Notes: generated from the sequence alone by a model not told the origin. A stretch of 37,554 bases of DNA from Deltaproteobacteria bacterium (GCA_013151875.1 JAADHL010000179.1:1-37554), one strand, 5' to 3'. Shown: positions 3,250 to 37,554, counted from the first letter of the stretch. Made by a program: numbers and translations.

Positions 3250-6200
3250 TCAATTGACCACGGGTTGATCACTTCCGTCCCCGGGCGCCATGCGCAGGAC
3301 GCGCCTCAGGGCCTCGGCTTCCTCGTGCAGTTCCAGGTACTCATATACCAATATTCCATCCAGTCGATGTTGTACAGCGCCGTCCAGGTCGCCCCTGTCC
3401 TCGAGGATGCCGGCCAGCGCTTCATGGGCCCGCGCGACCGAGGGATTGACCCCTTTGTCCCGTTTCGTGGTGTCCAGGCATTCCCTGAAATACCGCTCGG
3501 CCTGGTCTATGTCGCCCTCGCCCCGACAGGCAAACCCGAGGTTGACCAGGCTGATCCTCTCGCCGAACACATAACCTGCGCGTCGGTACAGTTCCAGCGA
3601 CCTCAACGCCAGTTCCCGTGCGTTCTTCCATTCCTTCAGGTTGAGGCTCAGGTCGGCCAGACTTGTCAGGCATCCCGCCACCCCCCTGGAGTCTCCCATC
3701 TGTTCGCGGATGGCCTGCGCGCGCATGACGGCGTCCCTGGCCTCCTCGACGCGACCCATCGCCGTCAGCGTGGTGCCGAGGTTGTTGAGGTGCCCGGCCA
3801 GCCCCCTTGCGAAGCCTGTCTGCTCGCACAGCCCTACCCCGATACGGAAGATCTCTTCGGCCTCTGCCGTTCGGTTGCTTTCAAGCAACTTCGCGCCCTT
3901 GAAGAAAAGGGCCTCGGCCCTCTCGATGAAGTCGCGAGGGCCGCTCAGTATTTCGAGGGCCCGGTCCATGTGATCGAGGCATGCACTGGTGGAACCCACC
4001 TTGCGCATCAGCCTGCCCCTGGCGAGGTCGATCAGGCCCAACGTCCGTGTTTTGCCGTAGGAATGAACCAAGTCGTCGGCGTGGTCCATGAGTCGCGCCG
4101 CCTCGCCGTTTTCCCCCAGGTCCATCTTGATGTCCGCCATCTGGACCAGGGCGTTGGCCGCCCTGTGATGGTCGCCGCGCGCCTCGCAGGCTTCGACCAG
4201 CCCCTGGAGTATCGACAACGCCTCCGTCGGTCGTCGTCTGGCCTCGGCCACTCGGGCGGACAAGGCCACCGCAAGCAGCGTTTCCGGCGTATCACGTTCC
4301 CTGCGACGCGGCTTGCCCATGGCCTTGAGACGCTCATCGGCTTCCTCATAACGTCCCTCGCGCCAACTGAGTTCGGCCAGGGCCAGATGGACCCGCTTCA
4401 TACGCGAGTCCTTTTCCAGGCGCATCCTGACCATGGCGGCCTCGGCCTCCCGGTACAGGTCGCCCGCATCCCTGAAGCGCGCGTCCTCCATGGCTGCTTC
4501 GCCCGCGGTCAGCAGGTAGTCGGTGGCCGTGTCCAGGTAGCCGGTCTCGATATAATGACGGCCCAGGTCCGCGGCGACGCGTCCGATGTCCTCCGAATAG
4601 GCCGTTTCCAGGACCTGGGCGGTCAGAAGGTGCAGGCGGGCCGTGGTGGAATCCCTGGGTCGTCCGCGAATGGCCTCACCCATGAGGGGATGCGTGAAGA
4701 CCAGGGAATCGTCGTCGCCCCAGGGGACCCGATTCAGGAATCCGTCCCTGGTCAATCGGTCCACCAGCGGGTCCAGGGCATCCCGCAGGTCCTTGCGGCC
4801 CTCCCTGTCGACGAGCGACCATAGGTTGCCGACGGCGGCCCACCGCCCCAGCATGGCCACGCGCGTCAGCAGTTCCGCGGCCGCGGCCCCATCGGGAAGC
4901 TCGTGGGCCAGGTCCTCGATACGGGTCGTCAGCAGGTCCAGAAGGGCCTTGGGCACAGAAGTATCCGCGCCGGCCACCAGACGCACCATGCGGTTGACAA
5001 GTGCGATGGCGCCCCTGGACCCGAGGTGCCTGTACATGTGCACGGCGAACATGGGATTGCCCCCGGCGGCGCGGTGGATCAGCCGCCTGACCTGACCGCT
5101 GCACTGGGCCTGGGACATGCTCTCGATCAAGGCGACCACGTCACGTTCGGTCATCCGGGACAAGACACGATACCCGCCGGCCACTTTGACCGTTGACATG
5201 GCCCTGCGCAGGACTTTGTATTCGTCGTCCTTGGACCTGTTTACGGGCATTGAAGTCACAAGGACGACCAAAGAGCATGGGTAGGAGCCCATCTGCCTGC
5301 ACAGCCTGTCCAGAAATGCGATGCTGTATGTGTCGGCTTCGTGGAAATCGTCCAGGCGCAGCACCAGGCCCCTTTTTGCGGTAAGCCGGCGCAGGAAGCC
5401 CTCCACGGAGGCCTGTATGTAGTCCACGAACACGTCCTTGTCCATGTGGGCCATGTCGCGGGCTGCCGCGCCCGGGTACAGGAGGGCCGTCACTCCGTCG
5501 GTCATCGGGTCGTCGTGACTCACATCGGCCAGTTCGGTCAAACGGTCGCGCACCTGGGCCTGAGTCCTTCCCTCCACGCCCAGCAGGTCGCCCATCGCGG
5601 CCCGCCATGACCCCATCACCGAGCCCCTCGATCCGGTCGGAGAAGAAGCGGTGAGGAACCCCCGTTCGGTGGCCTTGTGCTGGAAGCGGATACCCAGGGT
5701 CGTCTTGCCCGATCCCCGTTCGCCGGTGAACCAGTTCACCGAACCCCGGCCTTCCTGGGCCGCGGTCAGCGCCTCGTCGAGCAGGCTCAGTTCCCTTTCG
5801 CGGCCGATGAAGTCCGGGTCGCGCAACCTGATGGCCCGGGGCAGCGTGTCGAACCATGAATCGTCCTCGTCGAACTCCGGTTCCCGCGCTCCTTCGGGCA
5901 CGGCGGGGGACGCAGGCAGCATGCGCTTGAACCTGCCGATCACCTCGTCCACGCTCGGCGGTCTTTGCGCCGGGGACTTGGCGAGCAGTCTCAACAGAAA
6001 GTCGTCCAGCGCGCGGGGGACCCGGGTCTGCGGACGGGCGATGCTGATGGGCGACGGCACGGATTTGAGGTGCTCCTCCAAGGGGTCTATGCCGCTGAAA
6101 ACCGGGTCGCCGGTTATCAGTTCGTAGGTGATGGCGCCCACCGCGTAGAGGTCGGAGCGTTCGTCCAGGGCCTTTCCCCGTATCTGTTCAGGGCTCATGT

Positions 6201-12570: not shown

Positions 12571-14862
12571 TCAGTCGCCTTTGTCGTCAACAGGACCGTC
12601 CAGCAGGTAAAAACCGATTTCGAAGGGGCCGTCGACCCTTCCATAGGAAAACAGACCAGGGTCCAACCTTCCGTGGAGGGTGCGTGTCACGATGGGTTTG
12701 AGGACGTGGTCCCTGGCCGCCTCCATGCATTCGGGCCGCATCGGGCCGGTGGGCATTTGATCCTGGCTTTCTGGAAAGGTGTTGAAATAACAGCTCATAC
12801 CCAAATAGACGATCACATGGTGTTTCGGTGAAACGGCCTTTCGGTCGCCGGTCACTACTGAACCCAGGTCCACGGGTTCGAGCAGTTTTCCGGAACTCCA
12901 GATCAGGTCCACCGGAAAGGATCCGTACATATCCAGGCCGGCCAATTGCCAGCGGGGACCGTCGGGCAGGGTCGGCAACGCCTCTCTGATGAATCGCCAT
13001 TCCTGCTGGGACGCCATCATCTCAGTCACGAAACGGGCGTGCGTAAAGACCCCGGTCATCGGTGCGATCATGACCGCGGCCATCGCGATTTTGCGCAGGA
13101 AGGTCCTGCCGGTTCGCCAGTCAACGACGATCTGGAACGCCCCGGCAGCCACCATGGCGTGAAGAGGCGTTGAAAGGAGCTGGGATCGAAGATTGAACAG
13201 CGGGTTGTCGAACAGCAGTAAGGACCCGCCAGTCAGCAGCGCGACCGAAATCACGACCCACAGAGTCGCGCCGATCCGGTGCGTAAGCCCCCAGTAGAGC
13301 CCAAGCCCCCAAAGGACCCATAGCGCGACCGGAGTCGAAGCCGAATCGAACCAGACGATACCGCTAATTCCACGAAAACCGAGTTGGGGGCCGGCAACGA
13401 CGCGCGCCCTGAACTCAATAAACTGAAAGACAATCAGGGCGATCAGGACGAGTGCTCCCAGCAGGACCCTCCGGTCCTTCACGATGGATGGGATCTGTCC
13501 TGGTCGCGTCAGGGCCACGGCCAGGATTGCCATCACCGGGGCCGCCATGCCCTCCGGCCTCGACTGCGTCGCCAGGAACAGGGCAAGCAGCGCGGCCAGC
13601 AGTGTCGACAGGTTGCGCTTGTCCACGAACAGGATCACCAAAGCCACGGACCAGACAATGAACAGGGTCGCCGGCACATGGAGAACCTCCGAGCTGGAGT
13701 AACGGAGGTGCTGGGGCAGAAGGCACAGGACGAAACCCGCGAAAAGCGCCCTCGGCCAGCGACGAAACAGAGCGAAGTCCAGGGCAATCACGGCCCCCAG
13801 GGTCAGTGTGGACAGGACGGCGTTGGTCGCGAAGATGGCCTTTTCCTCGCCCCCGAAGGTCCTGTTTACGGCGGCGTACAGGACGGGACCGACGTCTCCG
13901 TACGGCAGGCTGACGTCCGCGAAGAGCCACCTGAATGGGGCCGAATAGTGGAAGAACTCGTGGATGAAGGCCCATGGGGACAAAGTCAGCCTGAGAATGA
14001 ATCCCAGGCACAGGATTCCAGCCACGCACGCCCATATCCAAAACGGCGGCGGAGCCTGCCTGATCAGGTCCCGCAGGATCCACAGCGTCGCCAGGGCCAG
14101 CGCCAGGATCATCGCCAGCAACGCCCAGTCGTAGATCAACCTGGGGTTTGGTCTGGGCTCGAACCTGTCCCTGGACACCAGTGCGCGGGCCAGGGCCTCT
14201 ACAGCGCCCTCATGTCCTTCAAGAGCCGAATCATCGGGCGGCGAACTTTTCAGCAGACAGTAGTTTTTCGTGGAAGCCATGCAGTCGCCACGTCTACCGG
14301 GCGGCACAGGGAAGATTATCGGCACCTTGACGGCGCGTCCGTTGCCGGAAAGCCGGATCGACAGGATCGCCGCTCCGGCCGGATACGTCCATGAATACCC
14401 TTTTACGACCCACCCGGCCTCCAGGTTTTCCCCGATCCTCAACGGTAGACGGCGTGTTTCGAGGGTGCGCCATATCCTGGTGCCGTCCATGCCCTCCAGT
14501 ACCGCCTTGAGCGATGCAATGATATCCGCGTCGGGCCGGGCCTTCGGCCATGTCACGCACCACGGGCCGGCCACGACGCCGTCGCAGCCCGTCAAGGGGT
14601 CCTGAAGCAATACTGAAAAGCACTGCTTGTCCGCGGTCGTACGACAGATGATGACATCATTATGGTCACGTCCGAACGACGCGCCCTGCAATCGTAGATC
14701 AGACGGTAGGCGCTTCAGTGCCCGGCCGATCTGTTCGCTCGCCTGTCTGGGAATGATCCTCCTGACGAATTCACCGTCATGGCCGCAGCCCGTCACCGTC
14801 ATCAGGATCATCAATCCAAGCGCTGCCCAAAGTCCCGCGCGCTCGGCGCCCGACATCACCAT
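12571..14862 (-). CDS. large polytopic membrane lipoprotein, candidate GT-C-fold (YfhO/ArnT/PMT-like) glycosyltransferase
   Basis: ORF 12571..14862 (ATG at 14862 or 14856; the latter overlaps the upstream stop as TGATG and has better GGAGG spacing). The N-terminal lipobox is LMTVTGC, followed by an extracytoplasmic domain of about 230 aa, about 11-12 hydrophobic helices and a soluble C-terminal domain of about 190 aa. It is the last gene of an operon with GtrA and a polyprenyl-phosphate-type GT2. The fold assignment is inferred from architecture and context only. Confidence 0.5.
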   Translation of the reverse strand: MVMSGAERAGLWAALGLMILMTVTGCGHDGEFVRRIIPRQASEQIGRALKRLPSDLRLQGASFGRDHNDVIICRTTADKQCFSVLLQDPLTGCDGVVAGPWCVTWPKARPDADIIASLKAVLEGMDGTRIWRTLETRRLPLRIGENLEAGWVVKGYSWTYPAGAAILSIRLSGNGRAVKVPIIFPVPPGRRGDCMASTKNYCLLKSSPPDDSALEGHEGAVEALARALVSRDRFEPRPNPRLIYDWALLAMILALALATLWILRDLIRQAPPPFWIWACVAGILCLGFILRLTLSPWAFIHEFFHYSAPFRWLFADVSLPYGDVGPVLYAAVNRTFGGEEKAIFATNAVLSTLTLGAVIALDFALFRRWPRALFAGFVLCLLPQHLRYSSSEVLHVPATLFIVWSVALVILFVDKRNLSTLLAALLALFLATQSRPEGMAAPVMAILAVALTRPGQIPSIVKDRRVLLGALVLIALIVFQFIEFRARVVAGPQLGFRGISGIVWFDSASTPVALWVLWGLGLYWGLTHRIGATLWVVISVALLTGGSLLLFDNPLFNLRSQLLSTPLHAMVAAGAFQIVVDWRTGRTFLRKIAMAAVMIAPMTGVFTHARFVTEMMASQQEWRFIREALPTLPDGPRWQLAGLDMYGSFPVDLIWSSGKLLEPVDLGSVVTGDRKAVSPKHHVIVYLGMSCYFNTFPESQDQMPTGPMRPECMEAARDHVLKPIVTRTLHGRLDPGLFSYGRVDGPFEIGFYLLDGPVDDKGD

Positions 14863-15488
14863 GCCTCCGGATGGCGGGTGCAGATGGCCTGGGCAAGTGG
14901 GAGCAGGTCACCAAACGCCGCGATGGCATGGACGGGCGCGCCCTGCAGCTCCGGCGAGACCAGGCATACCTTGAAGCCCTCGCCAGCGCGTTGAAGGAGT
15001 TCGCGGGACACCGGCAACCCGTGGAAGCAGTCCACCCAGAGCCAGCGGACCCGGCCGCGAAACGCATCAAGCAGTTCAGGCGGCTCGTACCTGGACAGCC
15101 TTACGGCAAATCGTTCCTCGCCTTGCCGTACCGTCCAGTGCACCAGGGTGGGCATCTGCGAATCCAGAAAGAACCAGTCTTCCAGGCCATGGTCCCGAAG
15201 CAGACGCATGACGACCGGCTCGACCCCGTCCACCTTGACATTGAGCACGATGGGACCCTTTAGGCCCAGCGCCGTGAACCGGTCCAGCCAGGCGTCGAAC
15301 GGATCGCCGGTTTCCCAGGGATCGTGCGCCAGGATGATGGAGCCTTTGCCGTCACCTGTCCTCAGGTCGATTTCAACGCCATGAGACGGGTCCACACCGC
15401 CCAGGTCCTTGATCCGGTTGACCCGATGGCGGATGAAGACGGGGTTGCTGCGGGCGGTCTTTTCACGATCTGATTGCCCTGCGTCCAT
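14856..15488 (-). CDS. glycerophosphodiester phosphodiesterase-like (GDPD / PI-PLC X-domain superfamily) protein
   Basis: ORF 14856..15488. FIRHRVN...GVEIDLRTGDGKGSIILAHDP matches the HR...E-x-D...HD pattern of GDPD-like enzymes. Confidence 0.55.
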   Translation of the reverse strand: MDAGQSDREKTARSNPVFIRHRVNRIKDLGGVDPSHGVEIDLRTGDGKGSIILAHDPWETGDPFDAWLDRFTALGLKGPIVLNVKVDGVEPVVMRLLRDHGLEDWFFLDSQMPTLVHWTVRQGEERFAVRLSRYEPPELLDAFRGRVRWLWVDCFHGLPVSRELLQRAGEGFKVCLVSPELQGAPVHAIAAFGDLLPLAQAICTRHPEAW

Positions 15489-18709: not shown

Positions 18710-19361
18710 CTGCGTCGCCGAAATGATCGCGCAGCACGGAAAAGACCTCCCGGCGCAACTTTTCGATGTTTTCGGGGGAATCTCCAGTCAATATCAGGCC
18801 GTGGTTCTGCATGAAAAACCACTGCGGCTTTGTCCCCGTGCGCCGCGCGTGTTCCTCGATGCCGCGCACGAACTCGATTGTCAGGAAAAGACCCGGCTTG
18901 GCGTAAGGTATCCACAGGAAACGCCTGTCGTCGAAAAGCCGTGCGGCGACCTCCGGTCCGTCACGCAGGCAGACAAGGGCCAAGGCATGTACTGGGTGCG
19001 TATGAATTGCCAGCCGCCCCGGCAGCATCGCGTGGATCATGGTTTCGATGGAAGGTCGCCCGGATGTCGGGCTGGTGCGGGACTCTAGCACGCGCCGCAG
19101 GACTGCCTGGTCCAGACGTGCTTGAGGAAGCCCGGACAAAGAACGATCGCTCACGATGGATCGGATGGCGTCCAGGTCCACTTGGACGAACCCTTCGGGA
19201 AAACGGGCGGATTTCAGCCTGACACCGGACAGCGTCACCCACATTCCGCCGTTGCCGGGCTTGAACGAGGCGTTCCCGCCCCCGCCTTGCACCATGTCGG
19301 GGTCCGCCCCATGACTCCGGCACATCTCTTCCAGTTGAGTCTGTTCACGATTGACGGACAT
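18606..19361 (-). CDS. class II aldolase/adducin-type domain, N-terminal half
   Basis: ORF 18606..19403. I prefer ATG at 19361 (AAGGAAG upstream; 17-nt overlap with the SGNH gene). Motifs: QGGGGNASFK, RPSIETMIHAMLP, HTHPVHALAL, FLWIPYAKPG, MQNHGLILTG. After DHFGDAGV the frame runs into a non-homologous Pro/Ala/Cys tail that overlaps ORF 18203..18709 by 104 nt. Confidence 0.7.
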   Translation of the reverse strand: MSVNREQTQLEEMCRSHGADPDMVQGGGGNASFKPGNGGMWVTLSGVRLKSARFPEGFVQVDLDAIRSIVSDRSLSGLPQARLDQAVLRRVLESRTSPTSGRPSIETMIHAMLPGRLAIHTHPVHALALVCLRDGPEVAARLFDDRRFLWIPYAKPGLFLTIEFVRGIEEHARRTGTKPQWFFMQNHGLILTGDSPENIEKLRREVFSVLRDHFGDAGVRAKQPTASPGPHAPCPVAAECACCRVRHLLRR

Positions 19362-20944: not shown

Positions 20945-22366
20945 TCAGAACTGGAAATAGATATACGGAACCACCTGCGTGGAGGCGATTTCCATCAACG
21001 CTCCGCCCAGGACGGCCAGGATCACCCCCTGGGCCACGGCAGGCAGCCTCATGAAACCATGCTTCACGAAATCCACCAGAGCCTGGGGCGTCCAGTGGAT
21101 CAGGTAAGCGATCGCCAGCACGGCCCAGACCCCTGCCGAGACCTGGGCCACGGAGGACGTGCCCTGAAACAACTGGGCCGTGACCTTGCCCGCGGTCGTC
21201 AGGTCCGGCGACCTGAACAGGATCCTCGACAGGACCGTGAAATGGAACATCGCAGCCACCTTGATGACATGCATCCACCTGGGGTCCAGGGTCCTGGAGG
21301 TCCGGCCGGATCGCTTGTAGAAGAATCGGTGCGCCACCATTGCGCAACCATGGATCGCCCCATAGACCACGAAGGTCCAGCCCGCCCCGTGCCACAGTCC
21401 AATCAGGAACAGGGTCAGCCACAGATTGAAATACGTGCGGGCGGGGCTGCCCCTGGAGCCTCCCAGGGGAAAATAGAGGTAGTCGCGAAGCCACGACGAA
21501 AGGGTCATGTGCCAGCGCCTCCAGAACTCGGCCGGGCTGCTGGCCTGGTACGGGCGCTCGAAGTTTTCGGGCAGGCGGAACCCCATGAGCCTGGCCGAGC
21601 CCCGCGCCACGTCCGTGTACCCCGAGAAGTCGCAGTACAGTTGCATGGTGTAGGCATAGAGGCCGATCATCACCTCCACGGACGTGAAGGCCGCGGGGTT
21701 GTCGAACACACGGTCGGCGAGGTTTATCGCCAGGAAATCGGCCACGATCACCTTCTTGACCAGACCGCGCAGTATCAGGAACAGGCCCTCGCCCACCATG
21801 TCCGAGTTGATGTACGGGCGCTTGATTATCTGCGGCAGGAAGTCGCGGGCGCGCACGATGGGGCCGGCCACTAGCTGGGGAAAGTACGTGACGTAAAAGG
21901 CGTAGCGCAGGAAGTTGCGTTCGGGCTCGATGACGCCTCGGTACACGTCTATTGTGTAGCTGAGAGTCTGGAACGTGTAGAACGAGATCCCCACCGGCAG
22001 CAGCAGGGCCAGATGCGCCTCGGGGATCTGGATGCCCACCACGGACAGTGTGTCATGGACCGCGGACGCGAAGAAGTTGAAGTACTTGAAGGTCCCCAGC
22101 ATCCCGAGGTTGCCCACCAGGCTGACCATGAGCCAGGCCTTCTTCGCGCGCCGGCCGTTCGCCCGGTGCAGCATCAGGGCGACCGTGTAGTCGAGGACCG
22201 TGGAGGCAAGGATCAGGGTGATGTATTTGACGTTCCACGCCATGTAAAAGCGGCACGAAGCCAGAAATGTGAAAAGGATCCGCGTCCGTTGCATTCGCGC
22301 GAGGGCCCAATAGACCACCAGCACGACCATCAGAAACAGGATGTATTCGAGGCTGTGGAAAAGCAT
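20945..22366 (-). CDS. MBOAT-family membrane-bound O-acyltransferase (AlgI/PatA/DltB-like)
   Basis: ORF 20945..22366, 473 aa and polytopic. MLFHSLEYILFL is a typical N-terminus. FWRRWHMTLSSWLRDYLYFPLGG and LIGLWHGAGW carry the conserved MBOAT histidine region. Confidence 0.9.
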   Translation of the reverse strand: MLFHSLEYILFLMVVLVVYWALARMQRTRILFTFLASCRFYMAWNVKYITLILASTVLDYTVALMLHRANGRRAKKAWLMVSLVGNLGMLGTFKYFNFFASAVHDTLSVVGIQIPEAHLALLLPVGISFYTFQTLSYTIDVYRGVIEPERNFLRYAFYVTYFPQLVAGPIVRARDFLPQIIKRPYINSDMVGEGLFLILRGLVKKVIVADFLAINLADRVFDNPAAFTSVEVMIGLYAYTMQLYCDFSGYTDVARGSARLMGFRLPENFERPYQASSPAEFWRRWHMTLSSWLRDYLYFPLGGSRGSPARTYFNLWLTLFLIGLWHGAGWTFVVYGAIHGCAMVAHRFFYKRSGRTSRTLDPRWMHVIKVAAMFHFTVLSRILFRSPDLTTAGKVTAQLFQGTSSVAQVSAGVWAVLAIAYLIHWTPQALVDFVKHGFMRLPAVAQGVILAVLGGALMEIASTQVVPYIYFQF

Positions 22367-22487
22367 TTCGTCCGTACCGTACCGGCAATCATCTTATCAG
22401 CGCCGGGAAGGGCGCACAAAGAGAACGCAACCTGGGCTATTATTCCGGCAGTTCGAGCCTTGTCGGATTCTTTATGCGGTACCTGAA

Positions 22488-23405
22488 ATGAAACGCTTGT
22501 TCATGTCGATGCTGATCGGATTTGCCGTCGTTCCCGTCACTTTATCCGCCAGGACCATGGAAAGCGCCGTGGGGTGGAAGACTGCTCGCCCGGTCAAGGC
22601 CGTGGTGGTCGGGGCCTCGATCGCGGCCTATTACGCAGGCAACTTCGGGGAACAGCTCCAGGGGGCCTGCTCGAACCTGGAGGTCGTCAACCTGGCCCAC
22701 CAGAAGGACAAGGCCCGCGAGATAAGGCACCGGTTCGAGGAAAAATTCCTGAAAAACCGCGGCCTGTTCAGGCGCGCGCCCGGACGGGAATACTGGGCCC
22801 TGGTGCTGGGCGGGCTCAATGAGATATGGGCCCCCGAGCGCGTGAACCTGCAACTGTTGGTGATGTTTCGCAAGGCCCATGCTGCGGGCGTGAAGGTGGC
22901 GGGGCTGAGCCTGACGCCGTGGGGCAGCGACGGGGACCGCAGGAGGTGGCGGGGAATCGCCGGACTGCAGACCCACCTGGACACCCGCAAGGTAGTGGAT
23001 TTCGTCCTGGGACGCCTGTCGCCGAAGGAGGCCCTGGGCCGGTACGCGGGCGACATGCGGCAGTGGGCCGATGGCGATCTGCCCGATTTGAAGGTGGACC
23101 TGTGGGACTCCGATCTGCGTGATCGCAATGCGCGGATCCGTCCAGCGGCGCCCCTGAAAAAGGCATTGCATCGCAGCCTGAAATGGAGGCGTCGGGTGGG
23201 GCGTCTGCCCAAAAATGAACGTAAGGCCCAGTGGAACAGGCTGCTGGACACCGCGCGCAAGGTCCCCAGGCACTACCTGCGTCGCGACCTGCGCTCTTTT
23301 GACAGCACCCACCCCAATCGCGAGGGCCACCGCATCATCGCCGCTCGCATCTGCGCTCATGCACCGGCCTCGTGGGGCTGCGACTGCTCGGCACTGGACA
23401 GATAA
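22488..23405 (+). CDS. secreted SGNH-like protein, divergent from the MBOAT operon
   Basis: Internal ATG at 22488 of ORF 22341..23405 gives the signal peptide MKRLFMSMLIGFAVVPVTLSA. Motifs: VVVGASIAAYY (block I-like, GAS), LGGLNE (block III-like), DSTHPNREGH (DxxH). Confidence 0.55.
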   Translation: MKRLFMSMLIGFAVVPVTLSARTMESAVGWKTARPVKAVVVGASIAAYYAGNFGEQLQGACSNLEVVNLAHQKDKAREIRHRFEEKFLKNRGLFRRAPGREYWALVLGGLNEIWAPERVNLQLLVMFRKAHAAGVKVAGLSLTPWGSDGDRRRWRGIAGLQTHLDTRKVVDFVLGRLSPKEALGRYAGDMRQWADGDLPDLKVDLWDSDLRDRNARIRPAAPLKKALHRSLKWRRRVGRLPKNERKAQWNRLLDTARKVPRHYLRRDLRSFDSTHPNREGHRIIAARICAHAPASWGCDCSALDR

Positions 23406-24284: not shown

Positions 24285-25337
24285 ATGACTGACGACCCGG
24301 TCCGTGGATGGGCGTTCGCCCGATACTGCATCCCCCTGGTCGTGTTGCTGGCGACCGTCGCCGGATGCAGGGACCATGTCGGGGCCGGACTCAAGATGCC
24401 GCCCGTGCTCGTGGCCACCCAGAAGGCAGCCCGGTCCACCATGGAGGACACCAGGCGCTTTACCGGCTTTACCTACCCGTGGGAGGCCCGCGGCGTGGGG
24501 TTCATGGTGGCCGGTCGCGTGACCTCCATCAAGGTGGACGAAGGGGACCACGTAAAAAAGGGTCAGACCCTGGCCACGCTGGACCCCAGCGACTACGCCC
24601 TTCAGGAACAGCTTGCGCGAATCCAGGTCGAGGCCCTGGAGCCGAACTTCCAGCGCGTCGACGGCCTGGTGAAGGAAAAGGCCCTCTCCGAGGCAAAGCT
24701 GGATGAACTCAGGGGAAAGTACCAGGCCGCTCTCACCCAGCGCAAACAGGCCCGCCGCCAGGTGGAGTACACGCGACTCGCGGCGCCGTCGGACGGCGTG
24801 GTCATGGAGCGCAAGACCAGCGTCGGTCAGGTGATCGGCGCGGGGATGCCAGCGGTAGTCCTGCTGGACCTGTCCAGGCTCAAGGTGAAATTCGGCGTCA
24901 CGCAGCAGGACCTGCACCTGTTCGAAAAGGGCCGCGAACTGCCGCTGACATTCCCCGGAGTAGAGCGGGAATACACCGGCCGCATCGACGGCGTGTCGGT
25001 GGTCCCGGATCCAAAGACCAGGACCTACGAGGTGAGCGTCGCGGTGGATAACGGCGATGGTCAACTCAGGGCCGGCATGCTTTCGCACGTGAGTGTCGCC
25101 ACCAGGAAGGTAAGCGGCATCTTCGTGCCCCTGCTCGCCGTCAAGCGGGACAGGGGCCAAGGGACCGTGGTCTACTTGTTCGACCCTGACACCCGCAAAG
25201 TGGTTCAGCGGCCAGTGAAACTGGGTGCAAGGTTCAAGGACCGCGTCCTTGTGACCGAGGGTCTGAAGGACGGCGATGAGTTGATCGTCGAGGGCCAGGG
25301 CTTCGTCAACCCGGGCGACGAGGTCAGAGCCAGATGA
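24285..25337 (+). CDS. efflux RND transporter periplasmic adaptor (membrane fusion protein), lipoprotein
   Basis: Internal ATG at 24285 of ORF 23829..25337. Lipobox LLATVAGC. A biotinyl/lipoyl-like hairpin (VDEGDHVKKGQTLATLDPSDY), a coiled-coil and beta-barrel segments are typical of the HlyD/AcrA family. The stop overlaps the pump start (ATGA). Confidence 0.9.
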   Translation: MTDDPVRGWAFARYCIPLVVLLATVAGCRDHVGAGLKMPPVLVATQKAARSTMEDTRRFTGFTYPWEARGVGFMVAGRVTSIKVDEGDHVKKGQTLATLDPSDYALQEQLARIQVEALEPNFQRVDGLVKEKALSEAKLDELRGKYQAALTQRKQARRQVEYTRLAAPSDGVVMERKTSVGQVIGAGMPAVVLLDLSRLKVKFGVTQQDLHLFEKGRELPLTFPGVEREYTGRIDGVSVVPDPKTRTYEVSVAVDNGDGQLRAGMLSHVSVATRKVSGIFVPLLAVKRDRGQGTVVYLFDPDTRKVVQRPVKLGARFKDRVLVTEGLKDGDELIVEGQGFVNPGDEVRAR

Positions 25338-28411: not shown

Positions 28412-28804
28412 ATGAGTCATCACGACCATTTTGATCGTCATCACCACCATGGCCGCCGTCACGATCGTCATCATCATCACCACGATGATCGGTGCTGCTG
28501 CGGCCACGGGGAACGTGACCGGCATCACGACTTTCACGGGGAACGATGTCGTGACGAAGGCCGTGAACGGGACCGGGGCGACGACTTCAATCCGTTCGAC
28601 TTTCAAAGGCACTTCGTCAGCGAACGGGAGGTCATCGAGGTCCTGCAGGACTATTTGACCGACCTGGAAAACGAGGCTCAGGGCGTGCGCGAGGCCATCG
28701 CCGAGATGAAGTCGGCCATGGCCGAGGCCGAACTGACCGCGGATTCCATTCAGACCGGCCCGGTGGACATCAAGCCCGAAAAAAAGAAGAAAAAGAAAAA
28801 ATAG
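28412..28804 (+). CDS. His/Cys-rich small protein with C-terminal coiled-coil and poly-lysine tail (putative metal-binding)
   Basis: ORF 28412..28804. AGGAGG lies 6 nt upstream of the ATG, and the gene starts 42 nt after the RND pump. MSHHDHFDRHHHHGRRHDRHHHHHDDRCCCGHGERDRHHDFHGERC is followed by an amphipathic helix (EVIEVLQDYLTDLENEAQGVREAIAEMK) and EKKKKKKK at the C-terminus. Confidence 0.7.
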   Translation: MSHHDHFDRHHHHGRRHDRHHHHHDDRCCCGHGERDRHHDFHGERCRDEGRERDRGDDFNPFDFQRHFVSEREVIEVLQDYLTDLENEAQGVREAIAEMKSAMAEAELTADSIQTGPVDIKPEKKKKKKK

Positions 28805-28964
28805 GCAGATGTTCGCCCGTCCAGCGACCGACTATCGACGGCAATCCGCGTCGCGTACCCCATTGCTCCTTGACGACCACTGGGCGTTGGTCTAAGAAAT
28901 CACCGGTTATTCCTTGTTTGAAATCAGGGGTCGTACGGCCCCTAAAGCCATGGAGGTCACTGAG

Positions 28965-29969
28965 ATGCTGAACAAAATCGGAGTCATCGGCGGTGGTTAC
29001 ATCGGCGGCGTGCTCGCCCAGGAGATCGCCAAGCGGCGTCTGGCCCGTGAGGTGGGACTGGTGGACCCGGCGCCATTCGTCAATCCCGACGACCCGCCGG
29101 AGAGGCAGGAGGTGGTCGGCAAGCAGTCGGTAGCCATCGGTAAGTGCCTGGACATTTCCGAGGGCCTGCCCACCATCGGCAAGGATGTGAAGCTGACGGG
29201 TTCCAAGGACTATTCGGCGATCAAGGACGCGGACCTGATCATCAACACCGCCGGCGTGCCGCGCAAGGCCCGTCCGGACGGGACCTTCCCCACCCGGGAA
29301 GAACTGTTGACGATCAACCTCAAGGTCACGAATCAGGTTGCGGCCGGCATCAAGGAGATGTGCCCAAATGCCACGGTCATCTCGATCGCCAACCCGCTGG
29401 ACGCGATCGTTTACACTCTGAACAAGGCCCTGAAGCCTGCCAAGAACAAGCTCATGGGCATGGCCGGCCAGCTTGATTCCGGCCGGTATTGCTATTTTGT
29501 CGCTGAAGCGGCCAACGTGTCGGTAGAGAACGTGAACGCCATGGTCATGGGCGGTCACGGCGACACCATGGTCCCGGTCCGCAGCTCCTGCCAGATCGCG
29601 GGCATCCCGGTCGAAAAGTTCCTCGACGACGAGACGCTCAAGGCCATTGAGGCCCGCACCCGTAAGGCGGGCGGCGAGGTCGTGGGTCTGCTGGGCTTCG
29701 GCTCGGCGTTCGTGTCGCCGGCGTGGGCCGCCCTGGAAATGGCCGAGGCCATCGCCTACGACAAGCGCAAGGTCCTGCCGGTATGCGCCAAGCTCGAGGG
29801 TGAGTACGGCGTCGACGGTCTGTTCGTGGGCGTGCCCTGCATCCTGGGCAAGAACGGCATCGAGAAGGTCCTCGAGATCGACCTGACCGCGGACGAGAAG
29901 GCCGCTTTCGAGCGCTCGGTAGGCGCTGTGCGCAAGACCTGCGACGAAGTCGAAGCGATGTCCGTGTAA
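28965..29969 (+). CDS. mdh: malate dehydrogenase (LDH/MDH superfamily, LDH-like MDH type) with elongated loops
   Basis: ATG at 28965 (GGAGG 8 nt upstream) within ORF 28914..29969. Motifs: IGVIGGGYIGG (Rossmann), GVPRK...TREELL (arginine at the specificity position), IANPLD, MGGHGDTMVP, GSAFVSPA. Confidence 0.85.
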   Translation: MLNKIGVIGGGYIGGVLAQEIAKRRLAREVGLVDPAPFVNPDDPPERQEVVGKQSVAIGKCLDISEGLPTIGKDVKLTGSKDYSAIKDADLIINTAGVPRKARPDGTFPTREELLTINLKVTNQVAAGIKEMCPNATVISIANPLDAIVYTLNKALKPAKNKLMGMAGQLDSGRYCYFVAEAANVSVENVNAMVMGGHGDTMVPVRSSCQIAGIPVEKFLDDETLKAIEARTRKAGGEVVGLLGFGSAFVSPAWAALEMAEAIAYDKRKVLPVCAKLEGEYGVDGLFVGVPCILGKNGIEKVLEIDLTADEKAAFERSVGAVRKTCDEVEAMSV

Positions 29970-30027
29970 AACGGGACCCGCGCAAGGACAACCGCCCGGG
30001 AACAACCCCCCGTCGGCAAACGCCGAT

Positions 30028-34151: not shown

Positions 34152-34862
34152 TTACAATTGCCACCATAGATCTATTACGGGATACACGGGGAGTTCCCTG
34201 TTGTCCGGGACGATGTCGCCGTTGGTGCGGGTGGTGGTGCCTACCTGGATCGGAAACCGTCCCACGGCAAGGCCCACCTTGAGCCTCATTCGGTAAAACG
34301 CGTGGCTGTAGGCCAGGATGATGGTAGGCGTGGTCAGACCGCCGCCGTCCCAGTAGTACTCGTCCTGGACATGCAGGCTCAGCAGGTCCGAGTCGGTGAT
34401 CAGTACCGAAAAGCTGCTGCCGAACATTACCCCGTGCGTGATGGGCGAGAGGTCCAGCAGGTATCCGGCCTCGGCGGAAATGACTACCCGCCAGTTTATC
34501 GGGAAGGACACCGTCGGAAAGAAGGACACCGTTCCGGGGAAGGACTTGCTGTCCAGAAACGTCTGGATGTAACCCAGGTTGAAAGCCAGGGCGGCATCCC
34601 CGTCGTATGCCTTCCACTTCAGCAGCGCGTTCGGGGTCAGAAGAAGGTGCAGGACGGGATGGGTTACGATCATCAACTGATCCAGCAGGCCGTAACGGAT
34701 GGGTCCCAGTATGCCGACCGTGAGGTCGCCTTCCTCCAGGGTATAGGCGGTCCCGTCCAGTACCTGCCTCACTTCGCCGAAACCGGCCTGGGCCCGGGCC
34801 GGTCGCGGGATCGCCGCCGCCGCGATCAGCGTGAATGCCAACAGTGTTTTGCGCCACCCCAT
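34152..34862 (-). CDS. hypothetical secreted protein, possibly a small outer-membrane beta-barrel
   Basis: ORF 34152..34862. Signal peptide MGWRKTLLAFTLIAAAAIPRPARAQA. It shows alternating hydrophobic/polar beta-strand-like segments with frequent G/Y/F and an aromatic-rich C-terminus (DLWWQL). I recognised no named family. Confidence 0.5.
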   Translation of the reverse strand: MGWRKTLLAFTLIAAAAIPRPARAQAGFGEVRQVLDGTAYTLEEGDLTVGILGPIRYGLLDQLMIVTHPVLHLLLTPNALLKWKAYDGDAALAFNLGYIQTFLDSKSFPGTVSFFPTVSFPINWRVVISAEAGYLLDLSPITHGVMFGSSFSVLITDSDLLSLHVQDEYYWDGGGLTTPTIILAYSHAFYRMRLKVGLAVGRFPIQVGTTTRTNGDIVPDNRELPVYPVIDLWWQL

Positions 34863-34995: not shown

Positions 34996-35025
34996 TGGAA
35001 ACAGTAAAGACAAAACTGCTACAAT
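34996..35025 (+). promoter_or_regulatory. candidate sigma70-type promoter for the cysteine-rich lipoprotein gene
   Basis: TGGAAA (34996..35001), an 18-nt spacer, then TACAAT (35020..35025), in a locally AT-rich stretch 35 nt upstream of the ATG at 35060, which has GGAGGAAG as RBS. This is a pattern match only. Confidence 0.3.
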
Positions 35026-35059
35026 CTTTTTCAAGTTTTCGAAAGTCTTGGAGGAAGTC

Positions 35060-37048
35060 ATGTCTCGCGCATCCGGAAAACTGCCGCGGCTGTCTACGGT
35101 GGCCATGCTGGTTGGTCTGGCGGCCCTCTTTACCGCCTGCCCGGATTCGTCCCCACCCGGGGACCTGATCCAGACCGACCTGGCCGTTCCGGACGTTGAC
35201 GCCGCGTCTGATGTTTTGACCGACACCCCCGGGGAGGTGGGCCCCTCGCCATGCATAGTAGACGCGGACTGCCCTGACGGCATGGTGTGCGACCCCGACC
35301 TGAACGTGTGCGTGCAGTGTCTGAGCGACGACGATTGCCCCGAGGGGTTCAGGTGCAACCAGGACCGATGCGTGGAGGTCATACTCTGCGCGGACCTGAC
35401 CTGTCCCGTACCCCTGGTATGCGATCCGGGTACGATGACCTGCGTGGACTGCCTGGTTGACCAGGATTGTCCCGAGGGTTTCGAGTGCAAGGACAAAGCC
35501 TGCGTCGAAAAGGCCAAGCCCTGCAGTGAGGGCGGCGAGTGCCCGCCGGGGACCGTGTGCAACGTGGACGCGAACACCTGCGTCGAGTGCCTCGGCGACG
35601 GGGACTGCCCCGAGAATTCCTACTGCGACCCGGCGACAATGACCTGCGAAAAAATGCTTTGCGAGCCGGGCGTCACCGATTGCGTGGGCAACGCAGTGGT
35701 CGTGTGTCGCGATAACGGCGGGGGCCGGGACTTGCTCCAGACCTGCCCCACGAGCTGGGTCTGCGTGGACGGCGAGTGCGTCGAAAACTGCGAGGCGGAC
35801 TGCGAGGGCAAGGAATGCGGGTCCGATGGGTGCGGCGGCGATTGCGGCGCCTGTCCGGACGGCACTTTTTGCGAGGATTACACCTGCAAGAAGGAATGCG
35901 TCCCGGAGTGCGGCGGCAAGGAGTGCGGCGCAAACGGCTGCGGCGGCGTGTGCGGGACCTGCGCCGACCAGCAGACCTGCTCCGACGGCCAGTGCCTGTC
36001 GTTGATCTCGTGCGCCAAGGGCATCGACTGTATGTTCCTGTGCAGCATGCCTTTTGATGAGTGCTGGGATCAGTGCTCCGGTAAGGTCGCCCCCGGCGCT
36101 GAACACGAGCAGTTCCTCAAGCTGTTCGATTGTGTAAGCGGGGCCTGCCAGGACACTGCCGGCGGTGGAATCGACCCCGGCTGTTTTGAAAAGGTCACGA
36201 AAGCCGTGTGCCTCGACATCTATAACGAGTGCATCGAGTGCAAATCCGACTGCACGGGCAAGGAATGCGGTCCTGATGGGTGCTCAGGGACCTGCGGAAT
36301 CTGTCCCGCGGACTCGTATTGCGAGGACTTCAAGTGCAAGACCGTCTGCCTGCCGCAGTGCACCGGCAAGGAGTGCGGGACGGATGGGTGCGGGGGCGTT
36401 TGCGGGTCCTGCCCGGACGGGTTCGACTGCGTGGGCGGGTTGTGCAACTGCGTCCCGGACTGCGCGGGCAAGGTCTGCGGAGCCGATGGTGGCGGCGGCA
36501 CCTGCGGTACGTGCGCCAATTCCTGCACGGGTGACACCGACGACCCATCGCTGTGCGTGGGCGGCGCCTGCATGCAGGTTTGCTGTCCGTACTGTGACGG
36601 CAAGGAATGCGGCGACGACGGTTGCGGTGGGGTGTGCGGGTTCTGTCCCGACGGGTCGGGGTGCGAGGACGGCCAGTGCATTGGCGTGTGCCTGCCGGAT
36701 TGCATCGGCAAGCAATGCGGCCCCGACGGCTGCGGCGACTCTTGCGGAACGTGCGCGGACGGGTTTTTCTGCAACATGAAGGGCCTGTGCCAGCCCCTGT
36801 GCGTGCCCCAGTGCAAGGGCAGGGACTGCGGGGCGGACGGGTGCGGCGGCGATTGCGGGATCTGTTCCAGTGTCGAGTATTGCGATTTCGGGGTTTGCAA
36901 GCCGTTCCATTCCTGCCTGGACATGGTCGAATGCTTTCAGACATGCGGCTACAACGAACAGTGTTACAACAAGTGCTGGCTGGACGCGGCGCCGGAGTCC
37001 AAGCAGCAATACAATGACTTGTGGCAGTGCCTGCTGGACGCCTGTTGA
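35060..37048 (+). CDS. modular cysteine-rich repeat lipoprotein (662 codons up to an in-frame TGA)
   Basis: Internal ATG at 35060 of ORF 34835..37048. Signal peptide with lipobox-like LFTAC (MSRASGKLPRLSTVAMLVGLAALFTAC). It has 4 copies of C-x-x-D-x-DCP-x-G-x-x-C modules (35252..35659) and 8 copies of C-x-GKECG-x-DGCGG-x-CG-x-C units, separated by two spacer modules of about 80 aa. Confidence 0.8.
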   Translation: MSRASGKLPRLSTVAMLVGLAALFTACPDSSPPGDLIQTDLAVPDVDAASDVLTDTPGEVGPSPCIVDADCPDGMVCDPDLNVCVQCLSDDDCPEGFRCNQDRCVEVILCADLTCPVPLVCDPGTMTCVDCLVDQDCPEGFECKDKACVEKAKPCSEGGECPPGTVCNVDANTCVECLGDGDCPENSYCDPATMTCEKMLCEPGVTDCVGNAVVVCRDNGGGRDLLQTCPTSWVCVDGECVENCEADCEGKECGSDGCGGDCGACPDGTFCEDYTCKKECVPECGGKECGANGCGGVCGTCADQQTCSDGQCLSLISCAKGIDCMFLCSMPFDECWDQCSGKVAPGAEHEQFLKLFDCVSGACQDTAGGGIDPGCFEKVTKAVCLDIYNECIECKSDCTGKECGPDGCSGTCGICPADSYCEDFKCKTVCLPQCTGKECGTDGCGGVCGSCPDGFDCVGGLCNCVPDCAGKVCGADGGGGTCGTCANSCTGDTDDPSLCVGGACMQVCCPYCDGKECGDDGCGGVCGFCPDGSGCEDGQCIGVCLPDCIGKQCGPDGCGDSCGTCADGFFCNMKGLCQPLCVPQCKGRDCGADGCGGDCGICSSVEYCDFGVCKPFHSCLDMVECFQTCGYNEQCYNKCWLDAAPESKQQYNDLWQCLLDAC

Positions 37049-37554
37049 CAGGACGGTTCGGACCAGTGCTATCAGAACGCCTACCTTGGGGCCTGCAAGG
37101 AACAGTATTACGCCTGCATGAACTGCACCCCCAACTGTACCGGCAAGGAATGCGGCGACGACGGTTGCGGTGGTTCGTGCGGCGCCTGCGTGGGCGGCGG
37201 GCAGTGTTCGCCGGCCGGACTGTGCCCCTGTGTCCCGAGTTGCGGCAACAAGGAATGCGGCCCCAACGGTTGCGGTGGTTCGTGCGGCGAGTGCCCGGAC
37301 AACAAGGTATGCAGCATCTGGGGACAGTGCACGTGCATCCCCAACTGCCTGGACAAACAGTGCGGAAACGACGGTTGCGGCGGTTCGTGCGGCAAGTGTC
37401 CGACCGGATACGTATGCGCCTCCGGCAAGTGCCAGCAGAACTGCACCCCGAGTTGCGCGGGCAAGGAATGCGGCGGGGACGGATGTGGTGGTGTGTGTGG
37501 GGTCTGCAAGGATGGGTACGACTGTCAGAACGGCAAGTGCGTGAACACGTGCAC
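35789..37554 (+). repeat. intragenic array of imperfect coding repeats of about 100 nt (12 or more CxGKECGxDGCGGxCGxC units in three blocks)
   Basis: Unit blocks lie at about 35789..35995 (2 units), 36242..36907 (6 units) and 37127..37554 (4 or more units). Recurring DNA strings are GGCAAGGAATGCGG and GACGG(T/G)TGCGG(T/C)GG. The blocks are separated by two related spacer modules (35996..36241 and 36908..37126). Confidence 0.85.
37049..37554 (+). CDS. continuation of the cysteine-rich repeat protein in the same frame after TGA 37046..37048 (open to the window edge)
   Basis: My own translation of the frame of 35060..37048 beyond the TGA: QDGSDQCYQNAYLGACKEQYYACMNCTPNCTGKECGDDGCGGSCGAC...CGNKECGPNGCGGSCGEC...CLDKQCGNDGCGGSCGKC...CAGKECGGDGCGGVCGVCKDGYDCQNGKCVNTC. 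No stop occurs up to 37554. It is absent from the ORF track because it is open-ended. Whether it is translated depends on how the TGA is interpreted. Confidence 0.55.

Follow-up and report, generated by a model that had tools for sequence, protein, structure and literature searches.

The locus and its gene

The window analysed here is the whole of a 37554-bp contig of about 63% GC, which belongs to the MAG of a Deltaproteobacteria bacterium. The NCBI annotation of 35060..37048 is a 662-aa product, GXP54_06185. The ATG at 35060 agrees as a start with this product and with the start of the orthologue L001 (MSRLSENL...). The gene and the signals that precede it are as follows:

34996..35025, + strand: promoter-like site, matching the sigma-70-type consensus at 9 of 12 positions, a consensus match only that says nothing on function
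35050..35055, + strand: putative ribosome-binding site GGAGGA, read from the sequence, 4 nt 5' of the ATG at 35060
35060..35140, + strand: putative signal peptide with a lipobox-like ...LFTA-C (Cys27), from the translation and its hydrophobic N-terminus
35060..37045, + strand: the upstream 662 codons of a Cys-rich repeat lipoprotein gene, from the translation and the homologues

The N-terminus of GXP54_06185 looks like a lipoprotein signal, judging from its hydrophobic stretch and lipobox-like Cys. The homologues P0002, P0003, P0004, P0009, and P0012 share with it a hydrophobic stretch and, after this, a conserved Cys-P-(D/G/S)-S-S. The 662 codons comprise, in order, an N-terminal Cys-rich region, CxGKECG units, a first copy of a helical module, more units, and helices 1-3 of a second copy of the module. 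By comparison with L001 and P0003, the intact gene is probably about 1500 codons long.

The GXP54_06185 protein has 1737 homologues at E <= 1e-5. The CxGKxCGxDGCGGxCGxC unit is present in over 1700 database proteins and is frequently joined to agmatine deiminase/PAD (PF04371), PPC (PF04151), or further domains, and the read-through protein itself has no family match in Pfam or NCBIfam even at E <= 1. With its lipoprotein-type signal, tandem units, and interspersed helical modules of 70-78 aa, the gene has the architecture of the Cys-rich repeat lipoproteins of Myxococcota-like bacteria, as do P0002-P0012.

Five sizeable ORFs of the contig have no Pfam match at E <= 0.001, namely 12571-14862 (-), 14856-15488 (-), 22341-23405 (+), 28770-30005 (-), and 34152-34862 (-). 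The 236-aa one among these five, which adjoins the Cys-rich gene, is conserved and syntenic in L001.

The in-frame TGA and the frame beyond it

The annotated gene ends at a TGA, beyond which the same frame continues to the end of the contig:

37046..37048, + strand: in-frame TGA, in the sequence GAC GCC TGT TGA CAG GAC GGT; the orthologous codon is GGG/GGC (Gly)
37049..37552, + strand: same-frame continuation of 168 codons, which encodes helices 4-5 of the second module and four CxGKECGxDGCGGxCGxC units and runs off the contig end

When 35060-37552 is translated in one frame, 662 codons are followed by one stop and then by 168 stop-free codons up to the contig end, just as the earlier note had described for the ORF 35060..37048. 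The four additional CxGKECGxDGCGGxCGxC units that it had placed downstream are also recovered by the repeat analysis, in which the four downstream copies of the 70-nt repeat unit start at 37120, 37225, 37330, and 37438. An open frame alone carries little weight here because the 63% GC contig holds many long spurious ORFs. The 168 codons after the TGA are taken as coding, and not as a chance open frame, because they are homologous to the orthologue (75% identical to the L001 protein) and to the repeat units. GC3 is 0.78 after the TGA and 0.82 before it.

The first in-frame start after the TGA is the ATG at 37118, which lies inside the module, and the sequence provides neither a ribosome-binding site nor a signal peptide for the part downstream of the TGA, in line with the earlier reading of this region. 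Since there is no start before 37118, no ribosome-binding site, and no signal peptide, the downstream part cannot be a separate exported protein, and a separate downstream gene was ruled out on the same grounds. A natural gene end at the TGA was also rejected, as no terminator-like site was found after it and the frame of the orthologue continues.

A perfect 5-bp inverted repeat, CCTGT-TG-ACAGG, occupies 37042-37053, and the TGA falls within its 2-nt spacer. Inverted repeats have been reported to trigger sequence-specific Illumina errors.

The helical Cys-rich module

The spacer between the repeat units recurs as a module of about 70-78 aa in which ten Cys are conserved, as established by alignment and by a module HMM that was built from the two copies on the contig and six homologous copies. 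The two copies on the contig are:

36008..36241, + strand: helical Cys-rich module, copy 1, intact; HMM match at residues 317-394 and alignment
36911..37126, + strand: helical Cys-rich module, copy 2, with the stop after helix 3; six-frame HMM match that spans the stop, and alignments

The TGA had previously been placed inside the second copy of a spacer module of about 80 aa. The HMM agrees with this placement and gives the module a length of about 72-78 aa and the boundaries 36911-37126.

AlphaFold2 was run on residues 625-698 of P0011, a homologous copy whose loop is equally long, with an alignment of 35 other copies as input. The P0011 copy is predicted to form a five-helix bundle (mean pLDDT 94.1) with helices at 2-10, 17-26, 29-46, 52-61, and 65-72. 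In the alignment, the Cys before the stop pairs with C46, where helix 3 ends, and the stop itself pairs with G47, where the following loop begins. On this model, the TGA deletes helices 4 and 5 of the second module together with their conserved cysteines and bisects the predicted fold. The alignment and the five-helix model are thus consistent with the earlier statement that the stop cuts through a structural unit.

A Foldseek search of the module model against the PDB gave a best match of only E = 4.7. The five-helix Cys module appears to be an undescribed domain, with no Pfam or NCBIfam model and no fold neighbour in the PDB. Hundreds of proteins from Myxococcota-like MAGs contain the module, in up to eight copies each.

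Orthologues and the residue at the stop column

Related loci were collected by a DNA-level search of one genome per species, which is independent of gene calling and gave 80 loci, nearly all of them in MAGs. The closest orthologue is L001 (JADHTP010000082.1), from the Black Sea 150 m MAG BS150m-G23. It is syntenic, with the same two upstream genes as the contig, and its gene is collinear with the GXP54_06185 gene over 829 of 831 codons. The codon at the TGA position is GGG in L001 and GGC in both L002 and L003, and all of these encode Gly. Moreover, the full-length homologues P0002-P0009 read through the equivalent module and have Gly or Val after the CxxxxC motif.

For a count over the whole column, 240 proteins, the six-frame translations of the 80 loci, and the contig were pooled, which gave 149 distinct module copies. 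The residue at the stop column is Gly in 91 of them, Pro in 16, Asp in 8, Ala in 5, Thr in 5, and others in the rest, and it is never Cys. Across these 149 copies, the only in-frame stop in any module is the one in copy 2 of the contig; an apparent second in-module stop in L009 turned out to be a run of N and was discarded. The alignment of orthologues that the earlier note had proposed as a check thus finds a sense codon for Gly (GGG/GGC) in this column, and not Cys or Sec.

Sense codons in the orthologues and same-frame homology that is unbroken on both sides of the TGA form the pattern of a premature stop by substitution, and GGA differs from TGA by a single G-to-T change at 37046. Amino-acid identity to L001 is 71% upstream of the TGA and 75% downstream. 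The dN/dS relative to L001 is 0.17 upstream and 0.15 downstream, with dS between the contig and L001 saturated at about 1.1-1.3 and the ratio giving no fine dating of the stop. The lack of relaxation downstream (dN/dS 0.15) implies that the stop is either recent relative to the divergence or absent from the cells.

P0003 (ENA, 1044 aa) and the L001 gene (L001 1330-4035) agree in their N-terminus. P0003 jumps from the first CxGKECG unit to the L001 unit that follows module 2, so that about 470 aa are missing; this gap is either a repeat-mediated assembly collapse or a real variation in repeat number. The contig and L001 both end inside the gene, which indicates that short-read assemblies break there.

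Possible recoding of the UGA codon

Two of the explanations put forward in the earlier note, selenocysteine and programmed readthrough, did not hold up. Decoding of the UGA as selenocysteine would give a vicinal Cys-Sec pair in an extracytoplasmic Cys-rich protein. Many Deltaproteobacteria use Sec, and the in-frame UGA adjoins an invariant Cys, with a frame that stays open and homologous after it. In this respect the gene resembles selenoprotein genes of the E. coli fdhF type, in which the UGA and an adjacent SECIS hairpin are read by SelB. Unlike these genes, GXP54_06185 has no SECIS-like hairpin, its column holds Gly, Pro, or Asp, its UGA is not conserved, and the position corresponds to a turn after a helix and not to a redox site. 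The homologous column has Cys in 0 of the 149 copies and mostly Gly, which directly follows helix 3 in the model, and the orthologue codons are GGG/GGC instead of TGA or TGY. The criteria of bSECISearch are said to include a stable stem whose apical loop lies about 16-37 nt past the UGA and has a G among its first positions. No hairpin with its apical loop in this range reached dG <= -7.5 kcal/mol, none combined such a loop and an initial G with useful stability, and the best candidates after the UGA have a dG of -4.6 or weaker or lie outside the 16-37 nt loop range. The small hairpin GGT-TCGG-ACC at 37055-37064 is present, and the earlier opinion that it makes no convincing SECIS is shared here. 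Rfam holds SECIS families, and its searches in e-value mode around the TGA and in gathering mode over the whole contig returned nothing relevant. The TGA plus 60 nt has an MFE of -13.0 kcal/mol against a gene mean of -20.2, which is weaker than at 94% of codon positions, and the 81-nt region at the TGA has a folding z-score of +1.83 relative to shuffles. In addition, the contig has no tRNA genes, tRNA-Sec included, and no sel genes among its Pfam-annotated genes. Selenocysteine at this codon is extremely improbable. Leaky or programmed readthrough, for example by a near-cognate tRNA (Trp), would instead yield a 662-aa short isoform beside a full-length one, and is very unlikely. The stop context is UGA-C, which Poole et al. 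are said to have described in 1995 as the weakest termination context, and the frame downstream of the TGA is open and homologous; the same UGA-C context is also found at three other TGA-C stops among the listed ORFs of the contig. In E. coli, UGA is read through more often than the other stops, and the fourth base modulates termination (PMC5373646). The present stop is similar to leaky E. coli UGA termination in combining UGA with a possibly weakening fourth base, and a low-level extended product is conceivable. In contrast to the E. coli case (PMC5373646), there is neither conservation nor a stimulatory element here, and any readthrough would amount to incidental leakage at a mutated codon, not to a system designed for two isoforms. 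Even L001, the closest and syntenic orthologue, lacks the stop and carries a sense codon, as do the 148 other module copies, and no stimulatory RNA structure follows the stop, the folding being weaker than at 94% of gene positions. Moreover, the model suggests that a bulky Trp-like residue would fit poorly at a mostly-Gly turn, and a passive leak of a few percent at most would be no programmed system.

A third form of recoding is the use of UGA for glycine, as in genetic code 25 of the Gracilibacteria/Absconditabacteria. The orthologous residue at the TGA is Gly, so the contig has UGA where its relatives have Gly, and in this it resembles code 25. On the other hand, TGA ends 14 of the 26 ORFs of the contig, several of which are well bounded: the Pfam match of the Asn synthase reaches model position 354 of 354 four residues before its TGA, that of PhoU_div reaches 213 of 214 before the TGA, and the TGA of the HlyD adaptor (25335-25337) overlaps the ATG of the AcrB gene. 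The earlier note had already named TGA as a normal stop of the kinase at 3250, the SGNH/GDSL gene at 19345, and the HlyD (RND) adaptor at 25335, and these examples stand. No other in-frame TGA occurs in the 831-codon gene. Whereas code 25 belongs to Gracilibacteria/Absconditabacteria, the contig has about 63% GC, ends most of its genes with an ordinary TGA, and has Myxococcota-like and not Patescibacteria relatives, in keeping with a high-GC Myxococcota-like deltaproteobacterium. GGA to TGA is simply one mutational step. The probability of code 25 is practically nil, and UGA as a sense codon under codes 4 and 25 was as good as ruled out by the ordinary TGA stops on the contig and the single in-frame TGA in the gene. 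Sense decoding confined to GXP54_06185, either as Sec through a non-canonical signal or as Gly through a suppressor tRNA, has a minute chance of being correct; if true, the stop would not keep the cell from producing the entire protein of about 1500 aa.

Real allele or base error

The TGA is very probably a one-base premature stop at a Gly codon, the real allele and the error being taken together, and it is an ordinary feature of an already known kind. Nonsense-mutation pseudogenes and truncated alleles of bacterial genomes and MAGs likewise have a premature stop one step from the sense codon of the orthologues, undisturbed same-frame homology downstream, and no expression signals of its own for the downstream part. 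Nothing of substance differs, and the choice that remains is between a change in the cells and a change only in the assembly. A recent nonsense mutation and a base or assembly error were both among the explanations listed previously, and both are supported by the Gly codon of the orthologues and the uniqueness of the stop. The part that was rejected is a repeat-collapse misassembly at 37046, which is unlikely because the surrounding DNA is not repeated. The DNA around the TGA is unrepeated in the gene, the repeat units elsewhere are only 61-79% identical, and none of them covers 36880-37119; repeat collapse was therefore rejected as the cause of the TGA.

With modest confidence, the TGA is regarded here as real and the gene as a young nonsense allele, in other words a pseudogene or truncated variant. 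The ancestral codon would have been GGA, and a G-to-T change at 37046 would have turned this Gly codon into TGA. The altered Gly would come after helix 3 in one of the small, disulfide-rich modules of five helices within a very large Cys-rich repeat protein that is secreted or lipid-anchored. The change would be real in the sampled population, and translation would end at codon 662 of an estimated 1500. The truncated product would carry a broken module without helices 4-5 and their conserved cysteines, and may well be impaired. The 168 or more downstream codons would still look coding, as there would have been too little time for decay, and no recoding machinery would be needed. The event may be considered recent because dN/dS, identity, and GC3 are kept downstream and neither another stop nor a frameshift interrupts the 168 codons. 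Elsewhere on the contig, the remaining 25 ORFs look intact, several of them with Pfam matches that run from end to end.

The T at 37046 could also stem from a sequencing or consensus artefact, or from a minority strain variant that the assembler picked up, in which case the organism would keep GGA and an intact gene of about 1500 codons. This is a serious, if doubtful, possibility. The downstream sequence is as constrained as the upstream sequence. The distance from the TGA to the contig end is 500 bp, and the gene is rich in repeats and of a kind that breaks assemblies. Related assemblies have difficulties of their own, since the gene likewise runs off the end of the L001 contig, about 470 aa of the L001 protein are missing from P0003, and L009 has at about 3385-3400 a run of N (scaffold gap) in mid-module with a frame change across it. 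Moreover, a near-identical sequence from an independent assembly, by which the base could be confirmed, was absent from the JGI metagenome contigs, the protein database, and the exact-protein index of gene positions in public assemblies (ENA, JGI, NCBI, Logan). Among the metagenome contigs, a degenerate DNA pattern across the TGA with an NNN codon had 0 matches, and a module-only protein query had 30 pattern matches, none of them a relative. A protein search with the junction and the downstream part (224 aa) returned no near-identical protein from an independent assembly. Against an artefact, the module DNA at the TGA is unique in the gene, so that repeat confusion is no explanation for a one-base change, and there are no disrupted genes elsewhere on the contig. 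Short-read consensus substitution errors at normal coverage are also rarer than genuine nonsense alleles.

Meaning for the gene and its family

As a case, the young nonsense allele or base error at 37046 shows that one in-frame TGA of a MAG can look like a sign of recoding, and it carries little biological weight. In such cases, a check of the aligned column in the orthologues, here Gly instead of Cys, quickly gives the answer. It is advisable to regard GXP54_06185 as truncated or disrupted, or else as the site of a candidate base error. The family to which it belongs is large, uncharacterised, and without a relative in Pfam, NCBIfam, or the PDB, and its combination of Cys-rich repeats and five-helix modules could merit a family description of its own.
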